NCBI GenBank assembly: GCA_001794215.1
Contig: MGJK01000012.1
Location: 80,818 to 144,817, forward strand
Reading direction: 5' to 3'
Source of the DNA: Candidatus Yanofskybacteria bacterium RIFCSPHIGHO2_01_FULL_44_24
GTDB lineage: Bacteria > Patescibacteriota > Minisyncoccia > 2-02-FULL-40-12 > GWA2-44-9
Length of the DNA: 64,000 bases
The position numbers and the translations under genes were made by a program. Shown piece after piece: positions 19,646 to 32,544 of the stretch. Below the pieces are notes generated by a model that was not told the DNA's origin, made no database searches, and worked only from the letters and a program-made list of their open reading frames with translations. Position 1 is the first letter of the stretch. Every line of letters starts with the position of its first letter.

Positions 19646-21211
19646 ATGACGGGGCTTTTTATTTTTCAGGAAGTAAATTTCTCGGCGGCTTTAAAGCATC
19701 ATCTTCATCATCTTTCCAAGTGCAGAATTTTTATATACAATTGGCTTATGTCTAAACTTAAATTAACGGGTGACCATTTTTATAAATTTTTCCAGTGTCC
19801 TCATTGGATTTGGTACGATATCTACGGCGAAGCCAAAAAGAGGAGGGAAGCTCCGCCTCTGTTAGAGATGATTTATAAGGGCAAGGTTGCACAGGCTAAT
19901 CAAACTCTGGGCCAGCATAAAAAATTCGAAGAGGTTAAGCCGGAACTTTTGCGTGATTTGGACGAGGGTTTTTTGGCTACCTTAGAGCTTATGAAAAAGG
20001 GAAAAAATATATATCACGGAGTTTTGATGAGCGAAAATTGGGTCGGGATGCCGGATCTTCTTGAGGCAAGGCCCGGTAAGTCGGATCTTGGCGATTGGTA
20101 TTATGTTGTCTACGACGTTAAAAGCTCTCTCGATCTAAGCGATGAGTACAAGTTTCAGCTTATTTTTTACAGTTTGATACTTGAGCGTCTTCAGGGCGTG
20201 AGGCCGAAGGAGGCTTATGTCATAGATGCCGAAGGCACCGAAAGGGCGTTTGCGATTGATGATTATATCGATCAATTCCATCTGACTCGTCAGCAGATAG
20301 AGAAAATTCTTGACGGTGAAAAGCCCGCCCCATTTCTAAAGAGCGGCTGTAAAAGAACTCCTTGGTATTCTCTTTGTATTTCCGAGACTGAGGGCTGTGA
20401 CGACGTTTCGCTTATATACAAGATCAGCCAAGCCGATCAGAGGCGTCTTTATGAGGTGGGAGTCAAAACAGCTCACGATATGGCCGATGCCGATGTCAAC
20501 CAGCTTCAGGCTAAATTGGAAGACTGGCCTTTTGATAAAATTATCAGGTTCAGCAATCAGGCCAAGTGCCTGATAAGTCAGGAGCCCAAAATTTTAAGAA
20601 AGCCCAATTTTCCCGACGTAGCCCACGAAATTTATTTTGATATTGAGAGCGACCCCACTCGGGATATAGATTATTTGCTCGGTTTTGTTATAAAAAGTAA
20701 AACAAGCCCCGAGGAAGTTAAGTACGAGTATTTTTTTGCCAATGATAAAAGCGAAGAGCCGGAGATGTGGAGAAAGTTCTTAGATTTTTTGGCTGGCTTG
20801 GATAATTTCGTCATCTACCACTATGCGTTTTACGAAAGGCAGGTTTTCGATCGCTTAGCTCTTCGTTACGGTGCCCCCACTACATTAATAAATAAATTCA
20901 AAGATAATACGATCGACCTTCATCTCAAATTAGTTGATTCAGCCGTTCTGCCGCTGTACTTCTATGGTCTCAAAGATGTTGCCGGATACTTGGGGTATAA
21001 ATGGGATAATCCCGAGGCGGGAGGAGCGGAGTCTGTTGTCTGGTATAATGACTGGCTTGATAAAAAGGACCTGCCTGACCGGCAGGCAGGCGATGCGATC
21101 CTCAAGAAGATTTTAAAATACAACGAAGACGATGTCCGGGCCACCTTGCTGATTAAAGAATGGCTCTCTTCTCAAAAACCATCCAAGCATAAGGAGAGCT
21201 TAGACGAGTAG
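19646..21211 (+). CDS. TM0106-family RecB-like PD-(D/E)XK nuclease with a C-terminal RNase-H-like (exonuclease-like) domain
   Basis: N-terminal FFQCPHWIWYD Cys motif. VYDVKSSLDLSDEYKFQLIFYSLILE (D..K PD-(D/E)XK). C-terminal IYFDIESDP...DYLLGF. The likely start is the internal MSKLKLTGD. Confidence 0.65.
   Translation: MTGLFIFQEVNFSAALKHHLHHLSKCRIFIYNWLMSKLKLTGDHFYKFFQCPHWIWYDIYGEAKKRREAPPLLEMIYKGKVAQANQTLGQHKKFEEVKPELLRDLDEGFLATLELMKKGKNIYHGVLMSENWVGMPDLLEARPGKSDLGDWYYVVYDVKSSLDLSDEYKFQLIFYSLILERLQGVRPKEAYVIDAEGTERAFAIDDYIDQFHLTRQQIEKILDGEKPAPFLKSGCKRTPWYSLCISETEGCDDVSLIYKISQADQRRLYEVGVKTAHDMADADVNQLQAKLEDWPFDKIIRFSNQAKCLISQEPKILRKPNFPDVAHEIYFDIESDPTRDIDYLLGFVIKSKTSPEEVKYEYFFANDKSEEPEMWRKFLDFLAGLDNFVIYHYAFYERQVFDRLALRYGAPTTLINKFKDNTIDLHLKLVDSAVLPLYFYGLKDVAGYLGYKWDNPEAGGAESVVWYNDWLDKKDLPDRQAGDAILKKILKYNEDDVRATLLIKEWLSSQKPSKHKESLDE
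21070..21090. repeat. GC-rich near-palindrome cctgcctg(a)ccggcaggcagg, copy inside a coding region
   Basis: 21-nt in-frame copy encoding DLPDRQAG in the nuclease gene. 20-nt perfect-palindrome copies occur at 29631-29650 and 51709-51728. Confidence 0.8.
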
Positions 21212-23653: not shown

Positions 23654-24715
23654 ATGCCCAACAACAACGCAGGCGCTATCGCCAAAACGGTCGTCGGTTT
23701 AGTTAAGAACCTGTCTACTCGAAACAGGGATATAATATCTCGTCGTTTTGGATTGAAAACAGGCAGAAAGGAGACTCTTGAGTCTATAGGCAAAAGCTAC
23801 GGGATTACCCGGGAAAGAGTCCGGCAGATAGAGGAGTTTTCCATGAATCAGCTTGCCAAAACCGCTAACGTCAATCCGGATGTTGCCCGGTATGTCTCTG
23901 CGGCCGAAGGCATTCTTCGGGATAACGGCGGCGCAGCCAAAGAAAGAGATCTGTTTAAGGCTTTCAGCGGAAACGATAAAGACAGCGTTGCCAATGCTTC
24001 GCTGGTCTTTTTGCTGACCCTGAATAACGAACCCGTTCGTTTTCATGAAAATGATGATTTCCACTCTTTTTGGGCGCTTAATTCTAAATTCGTAGATTAT
24101 CTCAGAAATACTTCCGCGTCGTTAGCTAACGCTATGAACAAGACCAAGAAGATAGTTCCGGCCGATCAATTCAAAGACTTTTTAAGATCAAACCATGTTT
24201 CAGGTCCTGATGGAGACGAGGTTTCCGATGGTCATGTTCAGATGCTTCTCTCTGTGAGTAAGAGCGTCTCCAAGAACATTTTCAACGAAGTCGGTCTGTC
24301 GGATTGGTCCGATATCAGGCCCAAGGGCGTCAGAGACAAGGCTTATTTGGTTTTAAAAAAAGAAAAATCACCCAAGCATTTCACCGATATCGCCAAGCTT
24401 ATAAATGTCGCCACTTTCTCAAGCAAGAAAGCCAACATTCAGACCGTCCACAACGAGCTTATTAAAGACCAGAGATTTGTTCTGGTCGGCCGAGGCATGT
24501 ATGGGTTGTCGGAATGGGGATACCAGCCGGGGACGGTTAAGGACGTTTTGGTTAGTGTTCTGAAAAATTCTTCCCAGCCTTTGCCCAGGGCCCAGCTCGT
24601 TTCCAGGGTTATGGATGCCAGGATGGTCAAAGAAAATACAGTGCTCTTAAATCTTCAAGATTCCAAAGTTTTCCTTAAAAAAGAAGACGGCACCTACGCT
24701 TTGCGTAAAGCGTAA
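23654..24715 (+). CDS. Sigma-70 region-4-like HTH domain protein (N-terminal) with an uncharacterised C-terminal domain
   Basis: ISRRFGLKTGRKETLESIGKSYGITRERVRQIEEFSMNQL matches the region 4.2 HTH pattern. The remaining roughly 280 aa have no recognised motif. Confidence 0.45.
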   Translation: MPNNNAGAIAKTVVGLVKNLSTRNRDIISRRFGLKTGRKETLESIGKSYGITRERVRQIEEFSMNQLAKTANVNPDVARYVSAAEGILRDNGGAAKERDLFKAFSGNDKDSVANASLVFLLTLNNEPVRFHENDDFHSFWALNSKFVDYLRNTSASLANAMNKTKKIVPADQFKDFLRSNHVSGPDGDEVSDGHVQMLLSVSKSVSKNIFNEVGLSDWSDIRPKGVRDKAYLVLKKEKSPKHFTDIAKLINVATFSSKKANIQTVHNELIKDQRFVLVGRGMYGLSEWGYQPGTVKDVLVSVLKNSSQPLPRAQLVSRVMDARMVKENTVLLNLQDSKVFLKKEDGTYALRKA

Positions 24716-24810: not shown

Positions 24811-26055
24811 GTGGTTTTCTCTCTTACTCTCGATATTTTAAAAGCAGCTTTTTCTCTACTCGCCTATTTTTGGTGGCTTTATCTGCCGATTCTTTTGTTG
24901 CTGGCCGTAATCGGTGTTTTTGAATTTCATAATCAACTCAGATATTTTCAGGGACTAAAATGGGTTCTCCTGGAAATGAAATTTCCGAAGGACCTGCACC
25001 GAAGTCCCAAAGCTTTTGAGCAGGTCTTTGCCGGTCTTCACGCGATCACCATACCTATTAAATGGTGGGAGAAGATTTTTGTAGGGAAAATACCGGACTG
25101 GTTTTCTTTTGAGCTGGTCGGAGTAAGCGGAGAATCTCATTTTTATGTAAGGACTCTGGAGCAGTTTAAAAATTTGGTTGAGGCTCAGGTTTATGCCCAG
25201 TATCCCGAAGCCGAGATTGTGGTAGCTTCGGATTACATGGACGAACTGCCGACATATCTGCCGGATCATAAGTATGATCTTTGGGGTTCTGAATTGATTC
25301 TTGAGAAAGAAGATGCCTATCCGATAAGAACCTATCCTGAGTTTGAAGAAAAAGCGGTTGCGAAGGAAGATATCAGGCGCATCGACCCCTTGGCTTCGAT
25401 AGTGGAGCTAATGAGCATGCTCGAGTATGGCGAGAGGATTTTCGTTCAGTTTATCGTCCGGCCTTCCGGCGATGAGTGGGTAAAGAAGGCGGAGGCGGTA
25501 ATTGACAAGATCATGGGTAAAAAGCCCAAGGCCTCCAAGGAGAGTTTGGCCTCTAAGATAGTTTTTGGCATTGATCGAGCGATAACCGGACCGGGAGGGG
25601 GAACGGAAACTCCCAAGGAAGAGAGGCGGGCGGATCTTAGTCCCGGCAAGCAGGAGGCGCTTAAGGCGATCGAAAAGAGCATCGCCAAGATCGGTTATTA
25701 TACCGGTATCAGGTTTATGTATATAGCTCCCCGCGAATCTTATCATCGGGCTCATGTCGCGGGAATTTTGGGTACTTTCAAGCAGTTTTCTACTCATAAT
25801 TTAAACGGATTCAAGATGAACAAGCCCACCCGAACAATGACAAAGGGTTTATTCAAAAAAAGCAGAGAGTATAGAAAGAAAATGTTTTTATTCAGGAACT
25901 ATGCTACCAGGAAGAAGCCGCTCAAGGAGTTTGTTTTAAATATTGAAGAGTTAGCGACGATTTACCATTTTCCGGATGTTGGAGTGCGGGCGCCGTTATT
26001 GCCCCGCGTTGAAGCGAAAAAGGGAGAGCCGCCGGTTGGTTTGCCTACAATATAG
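24811..26055 (+). CDS. Membrane-anchored hypothetical protein (two N-terminal transmembrane helices plus a roughly 350-aa soluble domain). A possible membrane partner or split N-terminus of the downstream ATPase.
   Basis: Hydrophobic N-terminus LLAYFWWLYLPILLLLAVIGVF with no recognisable catalytic motif. Lies 83 nt upstream of the T4CP-like ATPase gene. Confidence 0.4.
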   Translation: MVFSLTLDILKAAFSLLAYFWWLYLPILLLLAVIGVFEFHNQLRYFQGLKWVLLEMKFPKDLHRSPKAFEQVFAGLHAITIPIKWWEKIFVGKIPDWFSFELVGVSGESHFYVRTLEQFKNLVEAQVYAQYPEAEIVVASDYMDELPTYLPDHKYDLWGSELILEKEDAYPIRTYPEFEEKAVAKEDIRRIDPLASIVELMSMLEYGERIFVQFIVRPSGDEWVKKAEAVIDKIMGKKPKASKESLASKIVFGIDRAITGPGGGTETPKEERRADLSPGKQEALKAIEKSIAKIGYYTGIRFMYIAPRESYHRAHVAGILGTFKQFSTHNLNGFKMNKPTRTMTKGLFKKSREYRKKMFLFRNYATRKKPLKEFVLNIEELATIYHFPDVGVRAPLLPRVEAKKGEPPVGLPTI

Positions 26056-26138
26056 GAAATGTAAAATGCAAAAATAAAAGTGCAAAATTAAGATTTTCGG
26101 AATTATTAATCTTAATCTTCGTACTTTTATGTTAACTT

Positions 26139-27929
26139 ATGCCAGACAATGACGAACAATTAATAGTACTTGGTGAAACCAACTTCAGAAACCACAGGTC
26201 TCGTTTCGGAATAAAGACCGACGATCGGAGGCGCCATATGTATGTCGTCGGTTCAACCGGCATGGGCAAGTCGGAATTTTTGAAGAATATGGCCATTCAG
26301 GACATTGAAGCCGGCCATGGCGTGGCGTTTATCGATCCTCACGGCGATCCGTCCAACGACCTTCTCGATCATATACCCGCCCATAGAATCAAAGACGTTA
26401 TTTATTTCGACCCCGGAGACTTAGAGTACCCGATTGCATTCAATGTGATGGAGGGCGTCGGTTTTGATTACCGTCATTTGGTAGCCAGCGGTTTGGTCGG
26501 AGTATTCAAAAAAATATGGGGAGTTGAGGCGTGGTCCGGAAGAATGGAATATATTCTTAACAATACCATCTTGGCTCTCTTGGAGTATCCGGATTCTACC
26601 TTATTAGGAATAAACCGGCTGATGTCGAATAAAGAATACCGCAAGAAAGTCGTTTCTTCGCTCAAGGACCCGATCGTAAAAGGGTTCTGGGTGGAGGAGT
26701 TCGCAAAGTATGCCGATAAGTTCGCCACAGAAGCTACGGCCGCCATTCAGAATAAAGTCGGTCAGTTCTCTTCCAACAATCTGATCAGGAACATCATTGG
26801 CCAGTCAAACTCCAAATTAGATATCAGGAAAATAATGGATGAGGGGAAAATCCTCATTGCCAACGTTTCGCGGGGTAAAATAGGAGAAGACGCCTCCCGT
26901 CTTTTAGGAGCCTTCTTGGTCACCAAGATCCAGTTAGCGGCTATGTCCCGGGTTGATATTCCTGAGAACAAAAGGCGCGACTTTTATCTTTATGTCGACG
27001 AATTTCAGCACTTTGCCACGGAATCATTCGCCAACATTCTTTCCGAGGCGAGAAAATTCCATTTAAGCCTGACCATGGCCCATCAGTATATCAAACAGAT
27101 GGAAGAGCCGGTCAGGGATGCCGTTTTCGGCAACGTCGGAACCATCGTGACATTCAGAGTCGGAGCGGAGGACGCTGAATTTTTAGAAAAATGGTTTGCT
27201 CCGGATTTTATGATGGCGGATATAGTGAATCTTGGAAAATACAATATATATCTCAAGCTGATGATAGACGGAATTTCATCAAAGGGTTTTTCGGCTGCCA
27301 CTCTGCCGCCTTTTCCCCCGATGGATAAGAGCAATCGGGAAGCAATCATTGATTATTCCCGAAAGAATTACGGAACGCCGCGGGCCGAGGTTGAGGCCGG
27401 TATCGCCGAATGGGCCGGGATGCTTGAGTCCAAAACCGAGCAGGCAAGAGACGACAGACCGCGCCAATTTCGCGACGACAACAGGTCGGCGCAGAGATTT
27501 GATGACAGACCGCGCGCTCCTCGCTCAAACTACGACGCAGGGAGCAGATATGATAATGGTCCCAGGGATTTTCGTCGCGACGACAGAAGCGGCGGAGGAC
27601 AGGTCCGCGATATAAACAGAGATTTTTCTATTCAACAGCGGGCGCCGGCACCTCAGAAATTTCCGGATAGGCCTCCGGTTCAGCCAAGGCAGCCTATTGC
27701 ACAGCCTATGCCCGAAAGAAAACCCGAGCCAAAATTAGAACTAAAACCGGATTTGCCCAAACCGAAACCATCCGGCCTCTCTTTGGACGAAACTTTAAAA
27801 TCCGGGCCGGTTAATTTCAGGGGCCAAAAAATAGAACCTCGACAGCCCAAAGAAAAGAAAGAGGTTGATACGGGGGAATTGAGGAAGATCTTAGAGGGAA
27901 TGGGCAAGAAGGAGGAACAGAGCGGATAA
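26139..27929 (+). CDS. Type IV coupling protein-like P-loop ATPase (TraD/TraG/VirD4 family-like) with a long disordered R/D- and P-rich C-terminal tail
   Basis: Walker A VVGSTGMGKSEF and Walker B FYLYVDEFQHFA. IYFDPGDLEYPIAFNVME resembles the DP...NPL block of coupling proteins. The C-terminal approximately 170 aa are RDD/RD repeats then PxP-rich. No transmembrane segment. Confidence 0.55.
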   Translation: MPDNDEQLIVLGETNFRNHRSRFGIKTDDRRRHMYVVGSTGMGKSEFLKNMAIQDIEAGHGVAFIDPHGDPSNDLLDHIPAHRIKDVIYFDPGDLEYPIAFNVMEGVGFDYRHLVASGLVGVFKKIWGVEAWSGRMEYILNNTILALLEYPDSTLLGINRLMSNKEYRKKVVSSLKDPIVKGFWVEEFAKYADKFATEATAAIQNKVGQFSSNNLIRNIIGQSNSKLDIRKIMDEGKILIANVSRGKIGEDASRLLGAFLVTKIQLAAMSRVDIPENKRRDFYLYVDEFQHFATESFANILSEARKFHLSLTMAHQYIKQMEEPVRDAVFGNVGTIVTFRVGAEDAEFLEKWFAPDFMMADIVNLGKYNIYLKLMIDGISSKGFSAATLPPFPPMDKSNREAIIDYSRKNYGTPRAEVEAGIAEWAGMLESKTEQARDDRPRQFRDDNRSAQRFDDRPRAPRSNYDAGSRYDNGPRDFRRDDRSGGGQVRDINRDFSIQQRAPAPQKFPDRPPVQPRQPIAQPMPERKPEPKLELKPDLPKPKPSGLSLDETLKSGPVNFRGQKIEPRQPKEKKEVDTGELRKILEGMGKKEEQSG

Positions 27930-29564: not shown

Positions 29565-29663
29565 TATATCCGCCCTTAGCCCCGGCTTCCTGTCGGCTTC
29601 GGTAGGAAATCAAATATATCCGCCCTTAGCCCTGCCTGCCGGCAGGCAGGTCAGTTGGTAGAG
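29565..29663 (+). repeat. Two partial 5' copies of the tRNA-Lys gene; the second is interrupted by a 20-bp perfect palindrome
   Basis: tatatccgcccttagc occurs at 29565-29580, at 29615-29630, and again at the intact tRNA (29913-29928). The second copy reads ccgcccttagc + cctgcctgccggcaggcagg + tcagttggtagag, which is tRNA positions 1-11, the inserted palindrome, then positions 12-24. Confidence 0.8.
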
Positions 29664-29669
29664 ATCAAT

Positions 29670-29909
29670 ATGTATTTTGTATATATTTTAAAAAGCGGCA
29701 AAGACGGCAATTTGTACATAGGCCTTACTAATAACATAGAGAGAAGGTTGAACGAGCATAATCGGGGCAGAAATTTATCTACAAAACACAGGGTGCCGTT
29801 TAAGCTTTTGTATCAGGAGCGGGTAGGTAGTAGAATTGAAGCAAGAAAGCGAGAAAAGTATTTCAAATCAGGAACTGGTCGGGAATGGATCAAAAGTAGC
29901 TTAAGATAA
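29670..29909 (+). CDS. GIY-YIG nuclease superfamily protein (small, UPF0213-like)
   Basis: MYFVYILKSGKDGNLYIGLTNNIERRLNEHNRG... is a canonical GIY-YIG module. The track ORF begins at TTG 29655, inside the duplicated tRNA D-arm segment. Confidence 0.85.
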   Translation: MYFVYILKSGKDGNLYIGLTNNIERRLNEHNRGRNLSTKHRVPFKLLYQERVGSRIEARKREKYFKSGTGREWIKSSLR

Positions 29910-29918
29910 TTTGTATAT

Positions 29919-29991
29919 CCGCCCTTAGCTCAGTTGGTAGAGCAGCTCCCTTTTAAGGAGACGGTCGTAGGTTCGACTCCTACAGGGCGGA
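29919..29991 (+). tRNA. tRNA-Lys (anticodon UUU)
   Basis: Hand-folded: 7-bp acceptor stem ccgccct/agggcgg, D arm gctc-agttggta-gagc, anticodon loop cTTTTaa, T arm gtagg-ttcgact-cctac, discriminator A, and no encoded CCA. Very similar to the E. coli tRNA-Lys(UUU) backbone. Confidence 0.85.
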
Positions 29992-30595
29992 CAATATAAA
30001 AAGTCAGCATTTTTTGGAGTGTTGGCAATTCGGGAATATGCCTTTTTGTATTGTATTTCCTGAATCTCTTTGTTTTGGAACCAAACGTTCCAAAGTAGTG
30101 AATTTATCATTTGATACCTTTTTGAATCTTCGCCATTTAAAAAGTCATTTTTGGCGTTTTTAGCTTGTAAAAATACTTCTTTTGTCCGTTCCAAAGTAGA
30201 TAAGGCGGTTTCCGGATTATCCTTTTTAGTCCGGCTTAACTGATTTTCTAATTCAACCCTCTGATTATTGAGTTCCCTTATCTTATCGTCATATAACTCA
30301 ATTCTAAGGCTTCCAGAGGCCATAGCATCAGCCAGGCGGGATTCTCTTTCGTCTATCAGTTTCAATTCTTTTTGAATACCGGAAATGATAGTTTCAGACC
30401 TATCACTTGCCCCTATCTTCTGTTTGGCCGCCTCATACATGATTTCAATGGCCTCATCATCAAAAGCCAGATCGCCAAGCTTATCGGCAATCATCTTTGT
30501 AATAATTTCTTCCCGCATATATGCCTTGCCCTGTTCGCAAGAACCCTTTCCATTTGTGCAGTAATAATACCTATAACCCTTCTGCCACAGAGTGC
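29992..30595 (-). pseudogene. C-terminal fragment of a large serine recombinase (zinc-ribbon remnant plus coiled-coil region); N-terminal catalytic domain absent
   Basis: The minus-strand frame upstream of the track ORF start reads STLWQKGYRYYYCTNGKGSCEQGKAY-MREEIITKMIADKL... This is the YYxC...C half of the recombinase zinc beta-ribbon, followed by about 180 aa of coiled-coil. An in-frame stop lies just upstream, so there is no resolvase domain. The track ORF 29925-30518 runs antisense through the tRNA, so its last roughly 20 codons are artefactual. Confidence 0.45.
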
Positions 30596-30660
30596 TTTAC
30601 TTAGTTCAAAAACCGTGCTATCGTATAGTGCGGTTTTTAGTTCGTTGAAAAGGAAGCGAT

Positions 30661-31194
30661 ATGTTCACGGAAGATACGCCTAAACATAGCGACCCATCAG
30701 TAGAGCAATTGCTCGTCGATTTCAAAAAACTCAGAAAGATCATTAATGCCGTGAGATCCGGCTCGGTAACAAAGGCCCAGGCAATGGAGTACGAAGTCTC
30801 GGTCAATAAATTATTAAATCATGCCGGGACAGTAGATAGGGTATGCAAAGAAAGAGTCGAGCTATTAGACGGTGCCGACAAGGCCGTAAAAAAATTGGAA
30901 CAATTTGCAGAGAAGCGATTTCCGGCAGATGGAGAGTTCGGGTACCTTATGGTGGTCGAGCTGGACGAATCAATGCCTGGTGGCGAAAGAATATTCATCG
31001 GCGGGGGCAAGAGAAAGCCTGGAGAGGTCGGCGAGCCTTACGAGCCCGGGGTTTATGTGTATTGGGATGTGTATCTCTACGGTTATGCCGACGGCGGTCC
31101 GCACGACAGGCGGATCAATTCTTTGAGGGAAATCAAAGTTACAAATGAACAGTTAAGGAAATTTGTGGAGGCCGCAGAATCTTTGACGCGGTAG
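30661..31194 (+). CDS. Hypothetical protein (island cargo)
   Basis: 177 aa with no motif. Followed by the terminator at 31264-31296. Confidence 0.4.
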   Translation: MFTEDTPKHSDPSVEQLLVDFKKLRKIINAVRSGSVTKAQAMEYEVSVNKLLNHAGTVDRVCKERVELLDGADKAVKKLEQFAEKRFPADGEFGYLMVVELDESMPGGERIFIGGGKRKPGEVGEPYEPGVYVYWDVYLYGYADGGPHDRRINSLREIKVTNEQLRKFVEAAESLTR

Positions 31195-31263
31195 AGTTCT
31201 GAGCTATTCCCGGAGGAGAATCATAAGATTGTATCCAGCATTTTTTCTGATGGCTGAAAAGAC

Positions 31264-31296
31264 GCCGACTAATAAGTCGGCTTTTATTTTTTTTAA
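31264..31296 (+). terminator. Rho-independent terminator
   Basis: gccgactaataagtcggc hairpin followed by a T-run of 8 or more. Confidence 0.65.
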
Positions 31297-31308
31297 ATTC
31301 ATGGTAGC

Positions 31309-31596
31309 TTGTTAAGACAATTTAGTTTTTTAAAAAGGAGAGTCATGAAGATTCCGTATACCCGTATCGAAGCAGGCGAAACAGATATTCCAACCCACCA
31401 AATCGTTAAGCGGATCAGAGATGAGTACTTAGCCAAACTTGGCGGGGAGTTTGTAAGAGAGGTAGGCGGTAAGTACATGTTAATGGAGGAAACACGCACA
31501 TCTCATCGCTTTGAATTTGACGTGAGGGAACTGACCGAAGAAGAAGTAGCAAATTTTCAGGTTATTAATAGGCTCATTGTTTTCTTCATGAAATGA
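31309..31596 (+). CDS. Hypothetical protein (island cargo)
   Basis: Likely start at the internal MKIPYTRIEAG, preceded by a strong aaaaggagag RBS. Followed by the terminator gccggcagttagccggc+ttttt at about 31615-31637. Confidence 0.4.
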   Translation: MLRQFSFLKRRVMKIPYTRIEAGETDIPTHQIVKRIRDEYLAKLGGEFVREVGGKYMLMEETRTSHRFEFDVRELTEEEVANFQVINRLIVFFMK

Positions 31597-31614
31597 CCCT
31601 GACAACAGATTCGA

Positions 31615-31637
31615 GCCGGCAGTTAGCCGGCTTTTTA
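31615..31637 (+). terminator. Rho-independent terminator
   Basis: gccggcagttagccggc hairpin followed by ttttt. Confidence 0.6.
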
Positions 31638-31747
31638 TGAGAATATTTACGTGCAGCTTACTGCGCGTTCAAGTTTAAGTTTAAGTTGACAATATATCGT
31701 GAGGATGATATCCTATTTAAAAGTTCGTTTCACAATAAGGAATAAAA

Positions 31748-32122
31748 ATGTCCGGAAATCGCAAGACCCCCATTTACGTGACGGTAGGCAATTTTTGGAA
31801 AGAGGTCGAAGAGGCCGGACACAGGGTCGGAATGCCTCCGGAATTAATCAGCTGTCTCCGGGTTCTTATAGGATCGCACATCCATTCTCAAATGGGTCCT
31901 CGGGCGTCTCCTCATCTGATACGGCTGGCCAAAGAGTATGTTCTTGGCGGAGTTGTTATATCCGATTTTGTGAGAGAGGAAGAGCGTGTTCTTGAGGTGA
32001 TGGTTTTTATACCGAAGTTTAATCCTGATCCGGAAAAAGTCGGGCATCCGTTTTTCAAGCTCGTACCTACTTATTCAAACGGAGTGCTTCGGCGCCTTCA
32101 AGATATTTTGCCCGAAGATTAG
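31748..32122 (+). CDS. Hypothetical protein (island cargo)
   Basis: 124 aa. Preceded by an aaggaataaaaATG RBS. Followed by the terminator aaccgac...gtcggtt+tttt at about 32126-32156. Confidence 0.4.
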   Translation: MSGNRKTPIYVTVGNFWKEVEEAGHRVGMPPELISCLRVLIGSHIHSQMGPRASPHLIRLAKEYVLGGVVISDFVREEERVLEVMVFIPKFNPDPEKVGHPFFKLVPTYSNGVLRRLQDILPED

Positions 32123-32234
32123 CTTAACCGACCGAGATCAGAGTTAGTCGGTTTTTGATTGGAAAATACTTTACAAACTTTGTTGGAAGTGATACCTTGA
32201 CCCTGCCTTTTTAAGCAATCAAAACGAGGAGCCG

Positions 32235-32474
32235 ATGAGGATTTACTGGGACGCCAAGAGCCGAGGAACCAAAGCCGAGATCGTTCAGGATATGGAAAAT
32301 GATGCCGCCCGGCTGTTGGCGGAATCTGAGCCGGAATCGCACATTAGAGTAGGAGTTGAAAGGGTGTTCATTTATCCTTCCAGTTACGGCGTTAGCGGGT
32401 ACTCTTTGACCCTTGAAGATTTAGAAAGACTTGCTCAGGCGCTTAGGGCAAACAGCACAGACAGTTTTGCTTAA
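32235..32474 (+). CDS. Hypothetical small protein (island cargo)
   Basis: 79 aa. Followed by the terminator ccccacagaacgggg+ttttt at about 32475-32496. Confidence 0.35.
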   Translation: MRIYWDAKSRGTKAEIVQDMENDAARLLAESEPESHIRVGVERVFIYPSSYGVSGYSLTLEDLERLAQALRANSTDSFA

Positions 32475-32544
32475 CCCCACAGAACGGGGTTTTTGTTTAG
32501 GCATGCTCTAACCAAAAAGCGGGCAATGCCCGCCGAAACAACAG

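Follow-up and report, generated by a model that had tools for sequence, protein, structure and literature searches.

Can the membrane part and the ATPase part of a type IV coupling protein (T4CP) be encoded by two separate genes? The question is raised by a gene pair in a 64,000-nucleotide stretch of the genome of Candidatus Yanofskybacteria bacterium RIFCSPHIGHO2_01_FULL_44_24, a member of the Patescibacteria (candidate phyla radiation, CPR); this stretch (contig MGJK01000012.1, positions 80,818 to 144,817) is hereafter called the window. A first-pass annotation, made from the sequence alone, had read in the window a gene for a membrane protein (here called the anchor), followed by a gene for a 596-residue ATPase, and had suggested that the two might constitute a split T4CP. 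Both open reading frames (ORFs) were recovered on the + strand at the coordinates given in Table 1, and the suggestion gained support, inasmuch as the ATPase is closest to the coupling proteins TrwB, DotL and Cag-beta, and the anchor matches the N-terminal domain (N-domain) of fused proteins encoded on plasmids. We therefore regard it as probable that the two genes encode two halves of one VirD4/TrwB-like coupling-protein ATPase machine.

The ATPase and its relatives

The motifs that had been read in the ATPase withstood comparison with other family members. In 35 homologues, most residues of the Walker motifs were invariant (G38, S39, T40, G41, M42, G43 and K44 in Walker A; D281, F282, L284, V286, D287 and E288 in the Walker B region). 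The block described as DP...NVME was found as FIDPHGD and AFNVME, in alignment with VIVDPNGD of TrwB. The absence of transmembrane helices was likewise confirmed, the maximum 19-residue Kyte-Doolittle mean being 1.14. The N-terminal transmembrane domain, a feature of canonical T4CPs, is thus not in the ATPase polypeptide; a membrane span is carried by the separate protein encoded upstream. The public gene call for the ATPase (P0121) has 563 residues, 33 fewer than the ORF from the ATG at 26139, and implies a start near residue 34 (window 26139-26237). Because residues 12-33 are invariant among homologues, we take the 596-residue form to be correct.

Family searches placed the ATPase among the coupling proteins. 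With Pfam, TrwB_AAD_bind (30 bits, cut-off 20.5) and DUF87 (31.5 bits) scored above their cut-offs, and TraG-D_C (20.3 bits) just below its own. When the PDB was searched, the sole relatives recovered were TrwB and DotL, both by phmmer with the single sequence (5.6e-5 and 9.7e-5, respectively) and with a profile of the family (DotL, 6.6e-6; TrwB, 2.5e-5). The best NCBIfam matches were TraD-type coupling proteins, in the P-loop region only and far under the cut-offs; the NCBIfam HerA model gave 15.5 bits against a cut-off of 800. The VirB4 models AAA_10, CagE_TrbE_VirB and TIGR00929 did not match the ATPase, nor did the Pfam model FtsK_SpoIIIE.

The fold of the ATPase was predicted with AlphaFold2 (AF2). 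The predicted local distance difference test (pLDDT) score of the model was 59.9, with residues 30-300 acceptable, residues 304-389 poor and the tail disordered. Because the model is mediocre, the fold ranking is limited and rests mainly on residues 30-300; in that ranking, the ten best Foldseek matches were TrwB or DotL chains (5.6e-7 to 3e-6), with Cag-beta next (1e-3); the C-terminal domain of VirB4 (3e-3) ranked lower, and HerA lower still (at best 1.4e-2). FtsK structures were not among the matches. The model also contained eight helices at residues 109-235, between strands E87-90 and E238-242, a predicted insert that would correspond to the TrwB-like all-alpha domain typical of T4CPs. 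Assignment of the ATPase to the HerA or FtsK families had been named beforehand as the outcome that would speak against a coupling protein; the sequence, Pfam and Foldseek comparisons all favoured T4CPs instead.

The tail that follows the core (residues 432-596) is 165 residues long, close to the roughly 170 first reported, and is indeed rich in arginine and aspartate and then in proline and lysine (R 23, P 22, D 17). The supposed RDD/RFD repeats did not stand: they are degenerate low-complexity sequence, and Tandem Repeats Finder detected no tandem repeats in the tail at the DNA level. Among 70 homologues, the tails ranged from 59 to 397 residues and varied in sequence, and most of them had near the end an amphipathic motif, K.VD..L[RK]..L.E.L, which the earlier annotation had overlooked. 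A helix predicted by AF2 at residues 579-589 lies inside this conserved C-terminal module, which we consider a candidate partner-binding motif. The tail of the AF2 model showed no winged helix resembling FtsK gamma. In some lineages the amphipathic motif is replaced by the ending VL[KR]PGE.[IV].F (loci L016, L018, L041, L053, L058 and L061, and likewise L063, L067, L068, L074 and others), which looks like an alternative C-terminal module.

The anchor, its fused plasmid counterparts and the conserved pair

The upstream protein had been described as bearing two N-terminal transmembrane helices and a large soluble domain. The N-terminal hydrophobic anchor and a soluble domain of about 350 residues were both found, but the protein has one span, not two: its homologues (n = 77) showed a single uncharged run with a median longest length of 18 residues. 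In the same 77 homologues, lysine plus arginine amounted to 0.8 before the run and 3.0 after it; because basic residues are thus enriched after the span, the topology is predicted to be N-out/C-in, with the soluble domain in the cytoplasm. Residues W21, W22 and P26 at the span are invariant, as are L376, E379-A382, H386, P388, D389, P395, P398, K403, G405, P408 and G410-P412 in the C-terminal region. The AF2 model of the anchor (pLDDT 82.3; predicted template modelling score, 0.78) consisted of an N-terminal helical segment and an alpha/beta domain; residues 396-414 had a pLDDT below 50 despite their high conservation. The Pfam family PF26449.1 was found, precomputed, on the identical database protein (P0001) and on all 120 listed homologues. 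Local copies of Pfam and NCBIfam gave no match for the anchor, the PF26449 model being absent from the local Pfam copy. The family comprises 2,012 clusters at 50% identity, and a literature search found no paper naming PF26449.

By tblastn against plasmid sequences, relatives of the ATPase were detected in 654 records and relatives of the anchor in 25. Among the matches listed, the relatives of the ATPase were annotated as type IV secretion system (T4SS) DNA-binding, TraM-recognition or DUF87 proteins. On the Bacillus subtilis plasmid NZ_OX419581.1, both halves matched one and the same coding sequence, that of the 913-residue protein WP_144625398.1. Residues 76-414 of the anchor aligned with residues 41-315 of this protein (BLASTP E 7e-10; hhalign probability 97.4%, E 9e-12), and residues 5-408 of the ATPase with residues 324-759 (E 4e-35); a local hidden Markov model (HMM) of the anchor matched the N-domain of the 913-residue protein at E 1e-23 to 9e-16. 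The conserved C-terminal peptide of the anchor corresponded to residues 272-315, where the N-domain ends and the linker starts. Given that both halves align colinearly, the gene boundary in the CPR bacteria falls in an inter-domain linker of about 20 residues, with no material lost. On these alignments, the pair is the fission form of one T4CP-clade protein, and the anchor is more than a membrane stub, in that it bears a conserved domain of this T4CP clade.

The same relationship was recovered with HMMs built from about 70 CPR pairs, which matched the fused proteins along their whole length (ATPase part, 139-260 bits; N-domain, 19-74 bits) and left VirB4 proteins, TrsD and the VirD4 protein TrsK (5.9 bits) essentially unmatched; TrsE matched the ATPase HMM around Walker A only (19.9 bits). 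Three residues (D192, P218 and P408) were shared as invariant in the family alignment A5. To judge by these profile comparisons, the ATPase clade is distant from canonical VirD4.

The fused proteins named here are WP_144625398.1, WP_003349917.1 of pBM69 (833 residues), WP_331738717.1 of Embleya (812 residues) and WP_173230956.1 of Halorubrum, and the annotation of such proteins reads 'DUF87 domain-containing' or 'type IV secretion system DNA-binding domain-containing'. Their two domains are those of the CPR pair and follow each other in the same order, and several of the proteins have long biased C-terminal tails; they differ from the pair in being single, plasmid-borne polypeptides, and their identity to the CPR proteins is low (19-25% in the N-domain, 27-32% in the ATPase). 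The Embleya and Priestia forms carry an N-terminal membrane span, whereas the Bacillus forms have none. The Embleya protein has its span at residues 34-56 and its N-domain at 78-395. Walker A lies at residue 428 in the Embleya and Priestia forms, as compared with 414 + 38 in the CPR pair. The N-domain was present on 18 Bacillaceae plasmids, and in most of these the match lay inside a coding sequence annotated as a DUF87 protein. No experimental study of the fused plasmid proteins was found in the literature.

Two of the fused forms had features of their own. The gene of Priestia, which encodes a membrane span, the N-domain and the ATPase, appears to be disrupted: in the unannotated record of P. 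megaterium pFDU301A (L082:7887-11543), the ATPase part is in three ORF pieces over about 2.4 kb, so that either the gene is a pseudogene or its sequence is interrupted by an insertion or intein. On pHAR01 of Halorubrum salinarum (L083:7776-14999), the protein has 2,407 residues: the N-domain spans residues 76-363, Walker A is at residue 707, and a further 1,300 residues or so are of unassigned content. In a 708-residue relative from Bradyrhizobium, the N-terminus did not resemble the anchor.

The genes around the fused proteins were also considered. In the three Bacillaceae plasmids examined, the fused gene was followed by a 'replication-relaxation family' gene, TcpC- and TcpD/E-like genes and a VirB4-like AAA_10 ATPase, the separate VirB4 of the Bacillus cluster matching AAA_10 at E 8e-85. 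In Embleya, the order was PrgI-like, XF1762-family, VirB4-like (CD1110 family, E 5e-79), the 812-residue fused protein, a replication-relaxation gene and NlpC/P60. T4CP genes typically adjoin relaxase genes (T4SS review, PMC12857230). Because the Bacillaceae and Embleya fused proteins are encoded beside a relaxase-type gene and alongside a separate VirB4, they occupy the coupling-protein slot of monoderm-type conjugation modules, a context not found around the CPR pair.

To examine the pair across the Patescibacteria, 80 loci from different species genomes were compared. The ATPase gene was next to the anchor gene, directly 3' of it, in 77 of the 80; of the other three, one lay at a contig edge and two had different genes downstream of the anchor. 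The gap between the two genes was mostly 3-40 bp in these 77 loci, and in three the genes overlapped (by 4 bp in two and, through an ORF extension, by 68 bp in the third). In two loci, GIY-YIG nuclease-like ORFs lay between the anchor and ATPase genes (L041:7330-8090 and L053:3815-4775). A gene for a helix-turn-helix (HTH) protein stood immediately 5' of the anchor gene in 80/80 loci, and secD and secF preceded it in most of the 80, so that a block encoding SecD, SecF, the HTH protein, the anchor and the ATPase recurs in many Patescibacteria lineages. The ATPase was the best conserved product of the five block genes in 49/49 loci: median identity to the window protein was 62.5% for the ATPase, 53.8% for SecD, 46.3% for SecF, 40.2% for the anchor and 39.2% for the HTH protein. 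The anchor is carried by at least 580 GTDB species genomes, and most of the named close homologues of the two proteins are from Candidatus Yanofskybacteria and other Paceibacteria-type Patescibacteria. The first-pass annotation had reasoned that an upstream membrane protein unrelated in other genomes would undo the proposal; instead, the pairing recurred in these loci and again in the plasmid fusions. The pair is chromosomal, vertically inherited and under very strong constraint. Two contigs of one metagenome-assembled genome (JBDRMC01; L032 and L034) both carry the five-gene block, which reflects either a strain mixture or a duplication.

A further resemblance of the anchor emerged from its predicted fold. 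When the anchor model was compared with the PDB by Foldseek, the top 14 matches, the sole confident ones, were all TrwK/VirB4 chains of the R388 T4SS (E 2.5e-5 to 5e-3; template modelling scores, 0.32-0.38). Because the list contained no P-loop structure (such as 4ag5 or TrwB) and the anchor fold is not Rossmann-like, the match is probably to the N-terminal region of VirB4. A sequence link to VirB4 was found neither with profile A2 nor with the broadened profile A5 against the PDB, and Pfam searches at E<=10 on 36 family members yielded none to VirB4 or TrsD. Negative results were also obtained with hhalign of the anchor against the Bacillus VirB4-like protein and pSK41 TrsD, and with the local anchor HMM against five VirB4/TrsD sequences. 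There is a likeness of arrangement to TrsD and TrsE of pSK41/pGO1, in that TrsD, described in PMC12102498 as a remote homologue of the N-terminal portion of VirB4, is encoded separately and, in pSK41, directly upstream of the VirB4 homologue TrsE. The differences are that TrsD and the VirB4 N-terminal region show no sequence similarity to the anchor, that the template modelling scores are low and that the CPR partner ATPase is T4CP-like. The modelled likeness of the anchor to the VirB4 N-terminal region is thus a lead and not demonstrated homology.

Features and surroundings of the pair

The features of the two genes are collected in Table 1. Promoter-like sites were as numerous as expected from shuffled sequence in a promoter scan, and a scan for terminators detected weak terminator-like sites and no convincing terminator between the anchor and ATPase genes.

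Table 1. Features of the anchor-ATPase locus, with positions numbered from the first letter of the window.
Feature	Position	Strand	Description	Basis
Gene for sigma-70 region 4 HTH + HARE-HTH protein	23654-24715	+	353 aa	Pfam, NCBIfam
Anchor gene	24811-26055	+	GTG start, 414 aa	ORF call, Pfam family PF26449
Anchor, hydrophobic membrane span	24844-24921	+	aa ~12-37, conserved WW...P	Hydropathy, 77 homologues
Anchor, soluble alpha/beta domain	24958-25995	+	aa ~50-395, disordered K/E-rich loop aa 243-272	AF2
Anchor, conserved C-terminal peptide	25936-26052	+	aa 376-414, LNIEELATIYHFPD...LLPRVEAKKGEPPVGLP; disordered from ~aa 396	AF2 (disorder)
Intergenic spacer, anchor/ATPase	26056-26138		83 bp	Sequence read
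ATPase gene	26139-27929	+	596 aa	ORF call
ATPase core, VirD4/TrwB-type P-loop domain + candidate all-alpha insert	26139-27431	+	aa 1-431, no membrane segment	Pfam, PDB sequence matches, Foldseek
Walker A	26250-26273	+	aa 38-45, GSTGMGKS	Aligned with TrwB P-loop
Helical insert between Walker A and Walker B strands	26463-26843	+	aa ~109-235, candidate all-alpha domain	AF2
Walker B	26985-27002	+	aa 283-288, YLYVDE	Aligned with TrwB LWLFIDE
ATPase, disordered tail	27432-27782	+	aa 432-548, R/D-rich then P/K-rich	Composition, AF2 pLDDT mostly <50
ATPase, conserved C-terminal module incl. stop codon	27783-27929	+	aa 549-596, LDETLKSGPVNFRGQKIE...KEVDTGELRKILEGM...	Homologue consensus

The protein encoded immediately upstream of the anchor, earlier likened to sigma region 4, does carry Sigma70_r4 (E 6.6e-12), at its extreme N-terminus, together with an RNA polymerase delta-like HARE-HTH domain (E 1.4e-9). 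It may be the product of an RNA polymerase-associated core gene or a DNA-binding partner of the ATPase. The wider surroundings of the pair in the window are of a housekeeping kind and include genes for SecA, SecD, SecF, UvrB, Cys-tRNA and class-II tRNA synthetases, ATP synthase subunits and an ABC transporter. The earlier statement that the window has no VirB4 or relaxase was upheld when the ten largest other ORFs were profiled, with smaller ORFs not all covered. Moreover, tblastn with three relaxases and three VirB4s found nothing in the window or in the 80 related loci. None of 56 candidate stretches from viral contigs (0/56) was confirmed as a relative of the pair.

Elsewhere in the window, a GIY-YIG ORF similar to those noted above lies away from the pair at 29655-29909 and is abutted by a tRNA-Lys(ttt) gene (29919-29992), after which about 2.5 kb contain small unannotated ORFs on both strands; this region (29919-32500) may be an integrated element or a variable island. 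Upstream of secD, positions 19646-21211 (+) encode a protein of 521 residues in which an RNase H-like domain (E 4.8e-29) and, weakly, Cas4/DUF83 were matched; it is kept at that place in a few close relatives.

Possible roles of the pair and their significance

The C-terminal extensions of TraD and DotL, two of the canonical T4CPs, serve partner binding. With canonical T4CPs (TrwB of R388, DotL/IcmO, Cag-beta, TraD) the CPR ATPase shares the P-loop core with its helical insert, the TrwB_AAD_bind and TraG-D_C signatures and a DPxGD motif after Walker A. Canonical T4CPs differ in having their own two-helix membrane domain, in lacking the 350-residue N-domain and in their relaxase/T4SS context, which was not found around the CPR pair. 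A parallel to the two-gene arrangement is pIP501, where TraI has been proposed as the membrane anchor of the coupling protein TraJ (PMC13037476). There, too, a coupling ATPase would be held by a separately encoded membrane protein, and both architecture and adjacency fit; the CPR anchor differs in bearing the large conserved soluble domain of the ancestral protein, and pIP501 differs in being conjugative, with a relaxase.

If the two proteins work together, the anchor would be a single-pass membrane anchor whose cytoplasmic domain is the N-terminal domain of the T4CP clade, and the 596-residue protein would be a P-loop motor with the coupling-protein helical insert. It may be the conserved sequences at the C-terminus of the anchor and the N-terminus of the ATPase that join the halves, and by analogy with TrwB the complex would form a membrane-bound, hexameric ring. 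ATP hydrolysis would then drive a polymer substrate (DNA, RNA or protein) towards a membrane channel, and the disordered tail with its terminal motif may bring in a partner or substrate in the manner of the C-terminal tails of TraD and DotL. Because the pair sits in a housekeeping block with no relaxase nearby, and the ATPase is the most conserved protein of that block, the CPR copy is most likely domesticated, and it has probably been recruited to a core function of the cell. We slightly favour the possibility that this function is that of substrate receptor or motor for the chromosomal T4SS of Patescibacteria, which is encoded elsewhere in the genome.

Orphan homologues of this kind have been counted before. 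In the survey by Quinonero-Coronel et al. (2025, PMC12102498), 2,918 of 3,035 Patescibacteria genomes had VirD4-like homologues, 5,713 in all, of which only 148 lay near virB4; VirB4 was present in 2,417 genomes. The authors raise a possible 'exaptation' of the orphans, and in Southlakia epibionticum the t4cp homologue was reported to be non-essential and the T4SS genes essential. The window ATPase is almost certainly one of those orphans. The searched passages of PMC12102498 contain no mention of a missing membrane domain (the term 'transmembrane' is absent from them), an upstream anchor gene, fused counterparts or exceptional conservation.

Several observations weigh against the pair being a split coupling protein that serves a T4SS. 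The ATPase scored far below the cut-offs of curated T4CP models (SXT_TraD, 46.2 bits against 366; conju_CD1115, 24.5 bits against 250), the score of pSK41 TrsK against its profile was negligible, and the mediocre ATPase model limits what the fold ranking can say. The closest plasmid relative of the ATPase, among the matches listed, is a stand-alone 395-residue Sulfitobacter protein without an anchor. Neither in the window nor in the 80 loci was any T4SS, relaxase or oriT-related gene found. Two published findings (PMC12102498) count here as well: the S. epibionticum homologue is reported to be dispensable beside an essential T4SS, and more genomes have T4CP homologues than have VirB4, which is compatible with a T4SS-independent role. 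Finally, the PADLOC model mad8, of the MADS defence system, matched the ATPase at E 1.2e-13 (49 bits).

The main alternative is a T4SS-independent translocase, which would have the same split T4CP-clade identity and a different cellular role, either as an FtsK-like chromosome or DNA pump at the membrane or septum or as a nucleic-acid import motor. We consider such a translocase rather unlikely, though a serious contender. It would suit the housekeeping context with nothing T4SS-related nearby, an ATPase more conserved than SecD and SecF in every locus compared, and genome counts that are compatible with it; in addition, JGI names one homologue 'DNA segregation ATPase FtsK/SpoIIIE-like', and the fused Bacillus protein has a weak FtsK_SpoIIIE Pfam match. 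The window ATPase itself, in contrast, shows neither that match nor an FtsK fold match nor a gamma-like winged helix, and all characterised relatives of its fold class, to our knowledge, act with a T4SS. A role in nucleic-acid import is conceivable, as a cultured patescibacterium takes up host RNA by a route explicitly left unresolved, with T4SS-like tubes at the contact site (bioRxiv 10.64898/2026.06.21.733656). It is very unlikely that the pair is instead a split VirB4, an assembly ATPase of a T4SS like TrsD plus TrsE of pSK41, with the anchor as the VirB3/VirB4 N-terminal part. The TrwK/VirB4 chains at the head of the anchor's Foldseek list and the position of trsD directly upstream of trsE would fit, but the ATPase resembles TrwB more closely than the VirB4 C-terminal domain (5.6e-7 versus 3e-3) and has no match to AAA_10, CagE or any VirB4-family model; the anchor profiles do not reach TrsD or the VirB4 N-terminal region at the sequence level, and the fold scores are low. 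Moreover, the fused homologues share an operon with a bona fide VirB4 and adjoin a relaxase-type gene, and the genomes of Patescibacteria encode, at another place, a monophyletic VirB4 of their own, according to PMC12102498. We rejected a split VirB4 on the T4CP-like nature of the ATPase and the coexistence of its fused relatives with true VirB4.

Least credible of all is the notion that a mobile element, such as an integrated conjugative element, left the pair behind or carries it as cargo, or that the pair is an anti-phage component of the mad8-like or HerA type. Relatives are common on plasmids, GIY-YIG genes interrupt the pair in two loci, and the mad8 match is accompanied by weak HerA profiles and by DUF87 above its cut-off. 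The mad8 model, however, scored 49-73 bits across the ATPase clade (window ATPase, L084, L088, L081 and L089), with TrsK unmatched, and its 58-62 bits on conjugative-plasmid members were as good as or better than its score on the CPR ATPase. Because conjugative-plasmid members match equally well, the mad8 match signifies clade membership and not a defence role; mad8 itself appears to belong to this ATPase clade. The mad models did not match the two neighbours tested (the anchor and the HTH protein). Since mad8 matches the whole clade and the pair has no other defence genes beside it, the defence reading was rejected. So was the mobile-element reading, which is contradicted by conserved synteny (the same position next to secD and secF in most of the 80 loci and many lineages) and by the ATPase being the most conserved protein of the block. 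Beside the pair, neither a relaxase, integrase or VirB4 gene nor another defence gene was found, the viral-contig scan confirmed no relative, and HerA structures ranked under the T4CPs.

We thus return to the two halves of one coupling-protein machine as the probable identity of the pair. A bolder extension, which we consider improbable, is that the pair belongs to an unrecognised coupling-protein clade with a VirB4-like N-domain, split and fixed in the core genome of Patescibacteria, where it would serve as a motor pulling host nucleic acid (RNA or DNA) or other polymers inward. Stronger constraint on the ATPase than on SecD would then reflect the role of an import motor in nucleotide-auxotrophic epibionts, and the disordered tail would act as a 'fishing line' for a substrate or adaptor. 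If true, such a clade would connect the two families of T4SS ATPases structurally.

Parts of this picture were known before, namely the orphan T4CP homologues of Patescibacteria (2025), the proposal of an anchor in pIP501 TraI/TraJ, the separate TrsD and the Pfam entry for the anchor family. Four aspects are apparently new, in that no paper describing them was found: that the CPR T4CP homologue makes up half of a conserved unit of two genes; that the remaining half represents the N-domain of an unstudied T4CP clade, which occurs fused on plasmids of Bacillaceae, actinomycetes and haloarchaea; that this N-domain has a predicted VirB4-like fold; and that conservation of the ATPase exceeds that of the Sec genes nearby.

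Much of bacterial diversity belongs to the Patescibacteria, which depend on hosts for nucleotides and lipids and carry a T4SS whose genes proved essential in the single case examined. Orphan T4CP homologues occur in about 96% of their genomes, and neither their architecture nor their partner had been described; one of them is now seen, probably, as half of a two-gene machine whose other half is the uncharacterised membrane protein PF26449. The VirB4-like fold of the N-domain, if upheld, bears on the divergence of VirB4 and VirD4. The link to the unstudied fused proteins on Bacillus and actinomycete plasmids makes genetics possible in tractable hosts, and the pair itself is a concrete candidate for a key membrane translocation step in Patescibacteria.

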